From IMG/VR virus record IMGVR_UViG_2778261545_000004: DNA of 40,808 bases; one strand, written 5' to 3'. The translations under genes were made by a program, and so were the position numbers. The notes below the pieces were generated by a model, which saw only the letters and a program-made list of their open reading frames with translations, had not been told where the DNA came from and did not search any database. Positions 36,402-40,808 of this stretch are shown here, piece by piece (within the stretch, counting starts at the first letter, position 1; each line of letters begins with the position of its first letter). The stretch comes from a virus (taxonomy: Duplodnaviria > Heunggongvirae > Uroviricota > Caudoviricetes).

Positions 36402-38291
36402 TTAATCGTATTTTGGCCATACTTTCAATGCAATTTCCCCCAACTTTTTACCTCGCTCCAGTATTTCACTCTCATCCCATTTATCCTTAAGTATAAGTGG
36501 TATGTTCAGTCGTAGATTGGTGTGGACGATGAGAGCATCACGTTTTTTCAGAAATACAGCATTCTGAACGGAACGGTTTACGCTAAGGTTAAGCAAAGTT
36601 AGATTTCCCAACGTAGCTATCGCTTGTTGCCGTTTCCTTACCAGTAGCTGTTCAGGGGTAAGATCGGTTCCAGACAGAACAATTTGGTTCATTACCGTAG
36701 CATCTGAATTTGTCACCATATGACCATTTTCGAGAGGCCAACAGGAATACCAACTTTGAGGCATAAGATGATCGATATCGAGATTAGAAAGATTTGGAAC
36801 ATCAGGCTTTTCTGTCTTTACTTGGCGACAAAGTTCTCTTTCAAGTTCCGTTAACATTGAGCGCATTTTCGGTGCGTCGAGCCTGCCAGGATAAAGTGGA
36901 GCATTGATGCAAGCGTTGAGAAATTCTGAGTCCCCAGGCCAACGTGAGGCTTCGCCATTTAAGCTATTGAGGATATTACGTAACTCAATACTGGAAATTT
37001 CCGTTTTAGACAAGTGTCGCAATACATTCATAAATACATTGTTGTAATTCTTTGGCGTCAGGCCACATACGGATCTTCGTACTACGTAGGAGACAAGATC
37101 ATTATACATGGCTGCTTTCTCATCATCGGCGATGTTAGCTATCGAAATGAACAAAGCAAGCGGATAGAGTGTCGTCACATCATAGGCTGCGATGCGATGT
37201 CCAAAGTGTGAGATGGGGGTTGTGCCAAAACCACCAACCAATTCTTTATATTGTGATGCATATTGTTTGAGGCGCTTTACTTGCAGATCTGCTCGTTGTG
37301 AAGGCAAGTCCTTACTTACATAATCACGATACTCATTGTAAAGGCGAGACAGATCAATTTCACGCTGCCTTTCTGATTGCAATGTCGCATGTACAAGCCA
37401 CTCCATGCGTGGTTTATTAATACGTCCACGGCGTTGCTTTTCCGACCAGTATTTATCTTCAAAGATCTTCCACTCATTTTCATATAATTCAATAGTATTA
37501 ATATTTTCATGCTCAGCGCACATAAAGATATAGTTGCGAATAAGATCCGTTGCATGAAGTTCCGCTCCTCGCCCATTTAATGTTTCAAAAATTATTTGGG
37601 CATCATCTTCAGCTTCGAGAAATATGCTTACCAGTTTCAGATCCGTCAAGACAGCCTCAATTAGTGCTACAGCATTTTCTTGTGGTGAGCGGTTTTCTAT
37701 TTTAATCCATTTTATAAAGGCTTCAGTAAAAAACCATAATGCCTCTAGTGACGGCGGGTGGTTGAAATGTTTACGTAACGTACCATGTTGCGTGAAGCTA
37801 TCAGAAAATACATTACGGAGATCGTCAATATTATCAACATTAAGACTTTGAATAAAATGAGTTTGATCTCGAAAAGTTGGCCACAGTTTGAAGCATTCTA
37901 CCTTTTTATTTCTCATCGTTGCTTCGTTTGTATTTTTCAAGCAAGTCAATACTAACCCTTCCAGTTCAGAAAGGCCTGTAGCACGCAATGATAATCGAAT
38001 GGATGCCAGAATATATTGAAGAGTGGTTAAACGTTGCTGGCCGTCAATAATATGTATGGTATCTACACCTAACAAGCTGTTTTTGAGTTGAGGTTCCAGC
38101 ACCACCGCGCCGAGGAAATGAGGGGTTGGTTTTGTTCCCGAAAGTCGGCTCTGTGCTTTTTCGAAGATATCCTCCAGCAAAGCTGACCATTGGTTTCGTT
38201 GCGTCCATACGTAGGCACGTTGATAGAATGGAACACGATATTGTCGTTGATTTTGGAAAATTTGCTGGATGGTTAGCGTTTCGGATTTCAT
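36402..38291 (-). CDS. GmrSD-family type IV (modification-dependent) restriction endonuclease, fused DUF262-DUF1524
   Basis: 629 aa; N-terminal VPFYQRAYVW and IIDGQQRLTTL (DUF262), C-terminal DIDHLMPQSW ... GNLTLLNLSVNRS (His-Me finger); AT-rich. Confidence 0.8.
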   Translation of the reverse strand: MKSETLTIQQIFQNQRQYRVPFYQRAYVWTQRNQWSALLEDIFEKAQSRLSGTKPTPHFLGAVVLEPQLKNSLLGVDTIHIIDGQQRLTTLQYILASIRLSLRATGLSELEGLVLTCLKNTNEATMRNKKVECFKLWPTFRDQTHFIQSLNVDNIDDLRNVFSDSFTQHGTLRKHFNHPPSLEALWFFTEAFIKWIKIENRSPQENAVALIEAVLTDLKLVSIFLEAEDDAQIIFETLNGRGAELHATDLIRNYIFMCAEHENINTIELYENEWKIFEDKYWSEKQRRGRINKPRMEWLVHATLQSERQREIDLSRLYNEYRDYVSKDLPSQRADLQVKRLKQYASQYKELVGGFGTTPISHFGHRIAAYDVTTLYPLALFISIANIADDEKAAMYNDLVSYVVRRSVCGLTPKNYNNVFMNVLRHLSKTEISSIELRNILNSLNGEASRWPGDSEFLNACINAPLYPGRLDAPKMRSMLTELERELCRQVKTEKPDVPNLSNLDIDHLMPQSWYSCWPLENGHMVTNSDATVMNQIVLSGTDLTPEQLLVRKRQQAIATLGNLTLLNLSVNRSVQNAVFLKKRDALIVHTNLRLNIPLILKDKWDESEILERGKKLGEIALKVWPKYD

Positions 38292-38976: not shown

Positions 38977-39120
38977 TTTGCCATAAAGTGGTTATCAAAA
39001 CGCTACGTAAACTATACAAAATCAGCGAGTTATGGTGAAGGTAAAAAAACAAGTTTAGATGTTCGTTAAGTATAAAATTGTTTTAATTCAATTGGATATA
39101 ATAATTTTCTAAATCTAATG

Positions 39121-39282
39121 TTACGCCATATGGGCTGGACTGAAGCCGCAGACCTGATTGTTAAAGGTATGGAAGGCGCAATCAACGCCAAGACTGTAAC
39201 CTATGACTTCGAACGTCTGATGGAAGGCGCTAAACTGCTGAAATGTTCAGAATTTGGTGATGCGATCATCAAGAACATGTAA
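39121..39282 (+). pseudogene. icd: Displaced 3' fragment of isocitrate dehydrogenase gene (icd), 53 codons
   Basis: Reads [53 protein letters not shown], matching the Icd C-terminus as recalled; in-frame TAA immediately upstream. Confidence 0.75.
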
Positions 39283-39305
39283 TCACTACATGTGTTTAAT
39301 ATTGC

Positions 39306-39337
39306 AACGGGCGTATAACACGCCCGTTGTTTTATTT
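39306..39337 (+). terminator. Rho-independent terminator (native icd terminator)
   Basis: AACGGGCG-TATAACA-CGCCCGTT followed by GTTTTATTT, 24 nt after the icd stop. Confidence 0.65.
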
Positions 39338-39384
39338 ATGTAGGTATTATTAATAGCATATCGAGCATATTTATATAAAACCCT

Positions 39385-39708
39385 TTACTTGAGCCCATAT
39401 GGGCATATTTTTATAATGCAACTATTATGCAAACATTTATTTGTTATTTTGCTTTCTCCTGGAGGACACTCTTGACTGCTTTTGAGTAGACTCCATAAAT
39501 CCTTGTTGAATGGTGCGATGTTATAAATAGTAATAGGATATTCTTTATCTTTAAGGATAATTCCAGATTTAACCGGTGTAAATATACTGCCAGGAGGGAG
39601 AAATATAGTAGATTGATACCAGATGATCATTTTCATATTACCCCATATGGCTGAAAAAGATATGCCGCATGAAGGTTGAATTATCGTGTCAATTACTATC
39701 CACTTCAT
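39385..39708 (-). CDS. iraM: Anti-adaptor protein IraM-like
   Basis: 107 aa, [23 protein letters not shown]... matches IraM as recalled; position next to the icd fragment as in E. coli K-12. Confidence 0.6.
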
Positions 39709-40143
39709 TTGTTATGTCTTATCCCACGGTATTTAATATAGTTCATTTGGATGTTCATTTCTTTATTTTGCATATGAGTATATTACCCCTTCAAAAAATA
39801 AATTAATTAAAACGATTACTTATATAAAACAAAATTTAAAGCAAGGAATCTCAATGGATGTTAAACAAAATGAGATTTAGTGAAAACAATAAATTATTCA
39901 CTTCGTTTTAGATTTGTTTAGCTATAATGTTATACATTCAAATGACTGAACATCCTGTAATTAAAACATAGCCTTTATGCTACTTTGTGCCAATTTGCTA
40001 AACATTATGGTTGCCTTTTTATATAACGATAATAATGAATATAAGCATGACATGAGAATAAGGTTTCAATTTTTGAGTTATATAGGAAAGGTTTAACCTG
40101 TTCCTGGCTAAAATACATATAACTGGATGATGACTAAACCAAA

Positions 40144-40196
40144 AAACATGTGCGTTAAGTATTGAAACGGGCGTATGGCACACCCGTTGTTTTTAT
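40144..40196 (+). repeat. Second diverged copy of the icd-terminator element
   Basis: AACATGTGCGTTAAGTATTGAAACGGGCGTATGGCACACCCGTTGTTTTT is ~85% identical to 39289-39337. Confidence 0.6.
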
Positions 40197-40403
40197 AAAT
40201 ATATTAACCGTTATAAAATAACGTATAGAAAGTCAAGTGATCACATTTCAAATATCAATTTGATAGTATTGGCATGGTGATTATTTATGGGTAGCAATAA
40301 AAGGACAGTATTTATCATCCATAGGGATAGTCTCTGTACTTTTATTCCCATTATGCTAATGCCTTACTGAATTATGAAGCATTTCTTAAGCATCCAACTT
40401 TAG

Positions 40404-40808
40404 CTAGATTAATGGTTTATTATTTTCTACATCTTCAATATATAAAAGCGTATTATCAATGGCGTAGTAACTGCGTTTGTTATGATTAACATCAGTAACC
40501 CACCGGAAAACGCCCGCGCCTGCTAGTGTTGAACAGTATTCCCGAAATGTAGATTTTCCGCAAATATGAAGCAATGCGGCCTCTTTTATTTTAGCAGGGT
40601 TCTTGGTCGTACTAACTTTTAACAGGTTCCTGGTTCCTCTTAATAACAAAACCGTGTCATCGTGAGTAATAATTCTGATGTTATCCGTAGCCAGATAATA
40701 AATGTAATGTGCAATACGGTGATGTTTTAATTCTGAATAAAACCAGGAGAAGTTTTGCTCTTTTCTCACTTGCTCAAACATCTTTTGAAAAACAACGACC
40801 TGATCCAT
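40404..40808 (-). CDS. ycgX: YcgX-like protein (DUF1398 family); start codon coincides with the window edge
   Basis: 134 aa ORF; size and position after iraM match E. coli K-12 order (from memory); N-terminus could extend beyond the window. Confidence 0.45.
   Translation of the reverse strand: MDQVVVFQKMFEQVRKEQNFSWFYSELKHHRIAHYIYYLATDNIRIITHDDTVLLLRGTRNLLKVSTTKNPAKIKEAALLHICGKSTFREYCSTLAGAGVFRWVTDVNHNKRSYYAIDNTLLYIEDVENNKPLI

Follow-up and report, generated by a model that had tools for sequence, protein, structure and literature searches.

We analysed a stretch of 40,808 nucleotides (nt) held as a viral record (IMGVR_UViG_2778261545_000004), referred to here as the window, and found that the gene iraM near its right end lies between two diverged copies of the icd terminator element. 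IraM is one of the anti-adaptors that stabilise RpoS. The whole window corresponds to an intact e14-like prophage integrated in icd plus ~1.7 kilobases (kb) of host flank, and the two copies, which we call C1 and C2, are located in this flank. C1 directly follows the icd stop codon, and C2 is separated from it by iraM and ymgK. On balance, we consider the islet composed of iraM, ymgK and the iraM regulatory region, bounded by icd-terminator repeats, to be probably the scar of an old phage-type insertion at an integration hotspot.

Two copies of the icd terminator element around iraM

The repeat search of the window identified a direct repeat at positions 39291–39333 and 40151–40193, which is 43 nt long, 84% identical and spaced by 860 nt. 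Gapped local alignment of C1 with C2 gave a score of 57, compared with 19.5 ± 2.6 (maximum 32) for 300 shuffles, and the 28-nt hairpin core has exactly two matches in the window at three or fewer mismatches, where 0 are expected. These two results rule out chance similarity of the copies. The two-copy element around iraM described in the original prediction is real, and the corrections to it are small: ~50 base pairs (bp) become 43 nt, ~85% identity becomes 84% and the ~870 spacing becomes 860. The arrangement is that of flanking direct repeats, one of which overlaps the 3′ end of a conserved gene.

Judged from comparison with a longer allele of this locus, the true homology of C2 with the icd tail begins at TTAAGTATTG (40155), and the homologous unit therefore measures ~40 nt (39296–39335 and 40155–40194). 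The 'ACATGTGCG' preceding 40155 was aligned by eye to an unrelated stretch of the long allele; its likeness to the icd spacer is probably a coincidence. A 15-nt match between the e14 right arm (39059–39073) and the left edge of C2 (40148–40162) was dismissed as being at chance level for AT-rich DNA, and this edge lies outside the true repeat. We also rejected a transposon target-site duplication, which would be identical over 2–14 bp, as the repeat is ~40 nt long and 16% diverged. The repeat search of the window returned no terminal inverted repeats at the insert ends.

C1 (39291–39336, plus strand) is composed of a spacer, an 11-bp GC-rich stem-loop (39304–39330) and the T-run GTTTTAT. It was called by the terminator scan and has a predicted folding energy of −20.9 kcal/mol (z = −5.6). 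The canonical hairpin, AACGGGCGTATAACACGCCCGTT, is invariant across genera, being identical 3′ of icd in Escherichia coli, E. albertii, Escherichia sp., three Citrobacter species and phage 21. By these sequence features, C1 is a conserved, working intrinsic terminator of icd, and its position suggests that it may also end the convergent iraM transcript. No known RNA family could be assigned to C1 in Rfam, which returned just a sub-threshold tpke11 match and a spurious small nucleolar RNA match. The match to the tpke11 small RNA (39287–39357) scores 26.4 bits against a gathering score of 43, is placed on the icd terminator and most likely reflects hairpin resemblance only.

The distribution of the hairpin was examined with the exact pattern AACGGGCGT-N8-CCCGTTGTT (18 specified bases) in one genome per species across 185,579 species, and 23 stretches matched. 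Nine of these are enterobacterial (three come from one Shigella genome, two of them overlapping), and all nine are located at icd 3′ ends, either host or prophage-borne. Escherichia, Shigella and Citrobacter are the genera with the icd-linked hairpin. The other 14 stretches, single matches in unrelated phyla, are roughly the number expected by chance (estimate ~17). In the same scan, two copies 860 nt apart were present only in E. coli and Shigella. Queries containing the element matched at most four places per E. coli genome, and in the three records inspected (strain A8, S. flexneri SFBU0723 and O18) the extra place was the other junction of a prophage at icd. The species scan, together with the two copies in the 40.8-kb window, rules out a generic dispersed repeat such as the repetitive extragenic palindrome and bacterial interspersed mosaic element (REP/BIME) or enterobacterial repetitive intergenic consensus (ERIC) types. 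The concern attached to the original prediction, that the second copy might belong to such a repeat, falls away, given that the enterobacterial matches to the element are all icd-linked.

C2 (40155–40194, plus strand), identified by repeat detection, duplicates the spacer, hairpin and T-run of the icd terminator element and appears to be decaying. In the window type, a G-to-A change breaks a stem pair and the predicted folding energy is −9.9 kcal/mol (z = −1.1). The K-12 type (AACGGACGTGTGGCACGGCCGTT) contains two non-compensating stem changes that leave an A–G mismatch (−10.2 kcal/mol), and the stem is intact at locus L023 (−15.3 kcal/mol). The stem-disrupting changes thus differ by lineage between the window and K-12 types, and C2 is unlike a functional intrinsic terminator in that no stable stem is kept among strains. 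The plus-strand terminator scan did not call C2, and the open reading frames of the window include no plus-strand gene upstream of it. Weak folding, lineage-specific stem breaks and the lack of an upstream plus-strand gene together argue against upkeep of C2 as a terminator. C2 contains no icd coding sequence; its orthologue in the long allele keeps the last 13 nt of icd. Based on these comparisons, C2 would be a degenerating duplicate of the icd tail and terminator that no longer functions.

It is accordingly very unlikely, in our estimate, that C2 has been kept for use, either as a terminator for the minus-strand ycgX–ymgL transcript that insulates iraM or as one for an unannotated plus-strand RNA. 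Such a role would fit with the single hairpin of iraM-less strains, which lies between convergent icd and ymgL–ycgX and may act both ways, and with the minus strand of the window type, where the G-to-A change becomes a G–U pair and folding reaches −13.4 kcal/mol (z = −3.1). However, on the minus strand no U-tract comes after the stem, where the sequence is TCAATACTT, and on the plus strand the silent scan, folding of only −9.9 to −10.2 kcal/mol (z about −1), the uncompensated K-12 stem and the missing upstream gene all speak against it. Function would also leave unexplained the spacer homology and the 13-nt icd tail of the long allele.

C2-type copies were also encountered in IMG/VR (24 matches). 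Most of them lie ~620 nt from an end of the record, as C2 does in the window, and from this position we take them for host flank carried along in prophage calls of the same kind.

Alleles of the icd–ycgX locus

Of the complete E. coli genomes compared (5,426), 3,842 (~71%) have the iraM form and 1,036 (~19%) the empty-site junction, counted where a 201-nt junction query was covered in a single place. The iraM-less loci that were read (L001 from strain O18, L002, L052 and L053) contain the icd stop codon, the spacer, the canonical hairpin and GTTTTTATAAATATGTTAACC, directly followed by ymgL and ycgX. This empty site has one terminator copy, flanked on the right by the sequence that otherwise follows C2. 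The original prediction had proposed a comparison with strains lacking iraM, and in these loci exactly one copy plus the iraM segment is gone, corresponding to 860 bp in all, of which 817 bp are cargo.

In some E. coli genomes the match to the region is split in two and iraM is missing. Further variants of the locus carry IS1 or IS2 insertions, and in an O157:H7 variant a lambdoid prophage is present and the right side of the locus is lost. The insertion sequence IS200C sits exactly after the T-run in L003 (1552–3010) and L054 (iraM-less SB0258h1, GTEN_97), as one or two copies. In both loci the hairpin loop is flipped, reading GTGTTATAC instead of GTATAACAC, which indicates that the palindrome was inverted in place.

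Loci L004 and L023 contain iraM without any prophage at icd. K-12 iraM has been described as a gene that “is found on the e14 prophage” (PMC4045071). This assignment is contradicted by the position of iraM in the window, beyond the right attachment site (attR) and the displaced icd 3′ end, and by its presence in these prophage-free loci.

A rare 6.3-kb form of the locus, reached through YcgX variants, was identified in 19 of the 5,426 genomes (L060, L061 and L065, the last from strain N96). Its terminator copies are 6,312 nt apart (L065 4000–10370). Reading from icd, the long allele is composed of icd and its terminator, ~75 nt of e14-type arm, a gene for a 455-amino-acid hypothetical protein, a transposase pseudogene, trkG, an iraM variant (79–80% nucleotide identity), a YmgB/AriR-like gene, the iraM upstream region, a terminator relic, and ymgL and ycgX. 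The 455-amino-acid protein has no Pfam family and shows weak matches to PHROG 11707 and 10109. The trkG gene is 90% identical to trkG annotated in K-12 MG1655 genomes, which we take to be a Rac prophage gene. The flanks of the long allele are 91–97% identical to E. coli. Its icd differs at 29–39 positions in 1,080 nt, compared with 5–27 among other sampled E. coli (the anomalous S. flexneri SFBU0723 copy excluded), which places this lineage on the margin of E. coli diversity at icd or outside it.

The relic (L022, L060 and L065) reads ATCAAGAATATGTtaa, spacer and canonical hairpin. It thus consists of the terminator preceded by the final 13 nt of icd, and over 66 nt it is 80% identical to the icd tail. 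The derived spacer variant TTAAGTATTG (TTAAG) is common to the relic and E. coli C2, and we therefore regard the two as orthologous. The upstream region of iraM (39709–40154) shows 72–74% identity with its counterpart in the long allele, and the sequence of the 39337–39384 spacer is found there after the trkG terminator. The common allele lacks ~230 nt found just left of the relic. This stretch (L065 10075–10320, minus strand) contains an open frame of ~80 codons by hand translation and no annotated gene.

These comparisons suggest to us that the duplication predates E. coli diversification. Because the long-allele lineage, at the edge of that diversity, already has iraM and a relic with the shared spacer variant, absence of iraM is more likely a loss. 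Strains without iraM have probably lost it secondarily, C1 and C2 having crossed over within the identical block CACGCCCGTTGTTTT. A chimeric empty site joining the icd tail to a C2-type loop, which would prove a C1–C2 deletion at the left identity block, had 0 matches in metagenome contigs.

The opposite polarity, in which the iraM-less allele is ancestral and the islet entered once by site-specific integration at the terminator, with an attachment site (att) of ~66 nt and a third icd-targeting class of element, appears unlikely to us. It would account for the sharp left edge of the icd homology in the relic, 13 nt before the stop codon, for the canonical hairpin of the iraM-less single copy, which is identical to that of outgroups, and for the lack of the chimera in metagenome contigs. 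Set against it are the edge-of-diversity lineage, which already carries iraM and the relic with the TTAAG variant common to C2, and the integrase and phage attachment site (attP), neither of which was found. In a related proposal, which we consider doubtful, the icd terminator (~66 nt, beginning 13 nt before the stop codon and ending with the T-run) would be the att of a third, hitherto undescribed class of icd-targeting element that delivered iraM, with trkG and an ariR-like gene, into Escherichia, the 6.3-kb allele being its least-decayed remnant. Such a class would differ from e14 and phage 21, the homology of which begins 165 nt before the icd stop codon.

Cargo and proposed route of insertion

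The islet is AT-rich (25–33% GC over the insert). Its right-hand part, the iraM upstream region including ymgK (39709–40154, minus strand), has a GC content of ~25–31% and is absent in iraM-less strains, as is the left end of the insert (39337–39384), a spacer that extends from the C1 T-run to the iraM stop codon. iraM itself (39385–39708, minus strand, convergent with icd) encodes a 107-amino-acid RssB anti-adaptor, as identified by protein match, RefSeq annotation and PHROG. The protein is 99% identical to proteins named anti-adapter protein IraM and matches PHROG 4407 (E = 4e-52). ymgK (39961–40005, minus strand; 14 amino acids) was located by annotation and translation, and iraM and ymgK are the only open reading frames of the window between the copies.

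IraM homologues with 57–71% identity are found in lambdoid prophages, where they sit between the Q antiterminator gene or stx2AB and nanS-p plus a holin gene. The homologue contexts looked up are mostly lambdoid or Shiga toxin (Stx) prophages; one group adjoins IS21, and two groups are on short unplaced contigs. Dozens of Stx2 phage records contain 72% nucleotide matches to iraM, mostly unannotated. In Stx2-converting phages (L009–L012; H71–H95, e.g., FJ188381 and AP012530), the homologue is located between stx2B and nanS-p and shows 71% amino-acid and 72% nucleotide identity. Most of the listed GenBank phage records have no feature, or a hypothetical or unknown one, at this position; only LC567829 names iraM. 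A more divergent iraM (72% amino-acid identity) was observed in two Logan contigs (L058 and L059), together with a YmgB-like gene, in a segment running from an IS3-family transposase fragment to the bluR region. These contigs are without ycgX, ymgL and the terminator copy, which means that the iraM block occurs in further arrangements.

Phages integrating at icd provide the precedent for the repeat structure. The icd tail and terminator are carried by 26 phage records, phage 21 included, and among the matches listed the homology to the host ends at query positions 134–136, corresponding to window 39333–39335 and the end of C1. The phage 21 record annotates at this place a terminator, three Int arm sites and then int. 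Next to the icd terminator comes an arm of the phage-21 type, TTCCCCAAAA, in E. albertii, Escherichia sp. MOD1-EC7003 and O157:H7, and one of the e14 type, GTTAGNCTGCTAACGGTTATC…, in two Citrobacter species and one Shigella genome. Because these phages carry their own icd tail and terminator, insertion at icd routinely yields two terminator copies around foreign DNA.

The prophage of the window adds a diverged third terminator copy at its left attachment site (attL), TTAACGGGAGCGTAACGCTCCCGTTTTTTT (L005 5651–5700, outside the window). This copy has the architecture of the host terminator with a different stem and loop; other e14-like or 21-like phages carry a host-identical hairpin. In FAH (L053 1520–1600), the displaced icd fragment on the attR side is of the phage-21 type up to and through the hairpin and is then followed by host flank, which points to gene conversion or homologous exchange between phage-borne and host copies.

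According to the insertion reading, the incoming DNA would have brought its own icd 3′ tail and terminator, as phages 21 and e14 do at icd. After integration, one copy would have been kept by icd and the other stranded beyond the insert, and the element would then have decayed to its cargo genes, with the 6.3-kb allele as a possible less reduced stage. C1 and C2 would now act as deletion substrates: a crossover in the CACGCCCGTTGTTTT block would remove one copy plus iraM and restore the canonical terminator. A mobile origin of the cargo is supported by the prophage homologues of IraM, by the phage-borne terminators ending at the same T-run and by the content of the long allele. This evidence is indirect, and on it the islet appears to have been horizontally acquired, with foreign or mobile cargo. 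We infer that the insertion was site-specific and made by an integrase.

Several observations weigh against this reading of the islet as an insertion scar. Neither the 860-bp nor the 6.3-kb form has an integrase or excisionase gene, or a fragment of one, between its copies; the long allele contains there a transposase pseudogene, trkG, the 455-amino-acid protein, iraM and the YmgB-like gene only. An attP-like junction (C2-left, hairpin, C1-right) had 0 matches in viral and metagenome contigs, in exact-match scans that miss divergent forms. The displaced 165-nt icd fragment of e14 and phage 21 insertions was not found beside C2, and since an event of that type would leave 165 nt of icd, a further deletion would have to be assumed for this route. 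In the sequence preceding the 13-nt tail of the relic, homology with the last ~150 nt of icd is not significant (502 of 1,000 shuffles were as good), and against whole icd the same sequence is matched in score by 173 of 500 shuffles. As local alignment to icd did no better than shuffles, we rejected a remnant of icdC to the left of either C2 or the relic. DNA homology between chromosomal iraM and its phage-borne homologues stops at the coding sequence, and no donor was identified. The flanks of the islet likewise show no homology to phage genomes beyond the iraM coding sequence and the terminator. No phage arm follows C1 in the window. The ~75-nt e14-type arm of the long allele possibly originated in a separate integration: a later e14-like insertion followed by a T-run-to-T-run deletion could have left it, in which case it is silent on how iraM arrived. 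Finally, haplotypes of the right flank fall into four groups at about equal distances from one another, two with iraM and two without, and are uninformative on direction. YcgX homologues of Escherichia sp. E10V10 were tried as an outgroup and rejected, because they belong to an unrelated locus beside flagellar genes.

The missing integrase, attP and donor element would be accommodated by a local, non-mobile origin, in which replication slippage or unequal crossing-over doubled the terminator region and iraM, whether newly arrived or already close by, came to lie between the copies through illegitimate or homologous recombination. The same holds for the several unrelated elements that end or insert at the T-run, IS200C exactly after it, as the position may just be fragile. 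We nevertheless think such an origin improbable. Adjacent empty duplicates were not seen in any allele among the sampled loci, and the AT-rich cargo has homologues only in prophages, near IS elements or on a few short unplaced contigs. Furthermore, the phage-borne terminator copies offer a ready mechanism working at the same site, and the long allele has phage-arm DNA right after the icd terminator.

Two parts of the original prediction are each partly supported. Its site-specific insertion at icd agrees with the repeats, the empty site and the icd specificity of the element, and lacks the integrase, the attP and the 165-nt icd fragment. Its view of iraM as cargo of a decayed element agrees with the prophage homologues, the phage terminator copies and the long allele, and lacks an integrase remnant between the copies.

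Locus context and comparison with known systems

The e14-like prophage spans positions 1–39117 and fills the window up to attR. The window matches the genome of E. coli strain A8, in which the prophage has intE, xisE and head and contractile-tail genes. At attR lies the displaced host icd 3′ end ('icdC', last 54 codons; 39118–39282, plus strand), whose translation is the Icd C-terminus and which the annotation of strain A8 lists as partial isocitrate dehydrogenase; the intact icd with the phage-borne 3′ end sits at attL, beyond the window, in the A8 record. The right flank of C2 (40195–40808, minus strand) is common to all alleles, directly adjoins the one terminator copy of iraM-less strains and contains ymgL (40241–40351, minus strand; annotation and translation) and ycgX (40404–40808, minus strand; annotation). 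At the right end of the prophage, a gene at 36402–38291 (minus strand) encodes a 629-amino-acid GmrSD-type restriction endonuclease (Pfam GmrSD_N and GmrSD_C). This is presumably the place held by mcrA in K-12 e14, and the slot, which adjoins attR, looks like a swappable defence-gene slot.

The repeat-bounded islet offers a concrete structural explanation for the presence or absence of iraM, covering the majority that carry it, the clean empty sites and the rare 6.3-kb form. It also presents the icd terminator as a recurrent boundary of mobile DNA, at once an end of phage homology, an insertion point of IS200C and an islet edge, and it ties iraM to a phage-borne IraL/IraM family. Carriage of an IraM homologue by Stx2-converting phages could further link toxin-phage carriage to RpoS stabilisation. 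We regard the finding as an annotation and evolutionary note that involves no new mechanism. An islet scar is a familiar kind of structure, apparently not described for iraM in the literature searched.

The characterised homologue of IraM is IraL, encoded on the potB island of the uropathogenic strain CFT073 (PMC4045071). iraL and the Stx2-phage homologues belong to the same family as iraM (57–71% amino-acid identity, PHROG 4407) and are lambdoid-prophage cargo. They differ in lying within the late region, with Q or stx on one side and the lysis genes on the other, and have no flanking DNA in common with chromosomal iraM and no icd-terminator bracket. A further comparison is with loss of DNA through recombination at short direct repeats, of the RecA-independent or short-homology kind. 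Taking exactly one repeat and the sequence enclosed by the two away from the iraM-plus allele gives the iraM-less one, and the copies share 15 identical nt, CACGCCCGTTGTTTT, in which the crossover could fall. The difference is that the event is inferred here, and a never-inserted state would give the same allele. Decayed islets at the 3′ ends of genes and tRNAs resemble the iraM islet in their imperfect direct repeats, AT-rich small regulatory cargo and clean empty site, whereas the iraM islet is without a recombinase remnant, its repeats are 16% diverged and the repeated unit is a terminator rather than a tRNA or coding segment.

The closest comparison is with the attL/attR pairs of e14 and phage 21. 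Those elements duplicate the last 165 nt of icd and encode an integrase, whereas the iraM insert is 860 bp long, has no integrase and has a second copy without icd coding sequence (13 nt in the long allele). Nevertheless, the same gene and the same hotspot are involved, a homologue of the icd tail and terminator rides on the phage, two copies flank the insert, and homology stops at the T-run of C1. The e14-like prophage of the window, with intE, xisE and icdC (39118–39282), is a live example of this arrangement at the same icd.

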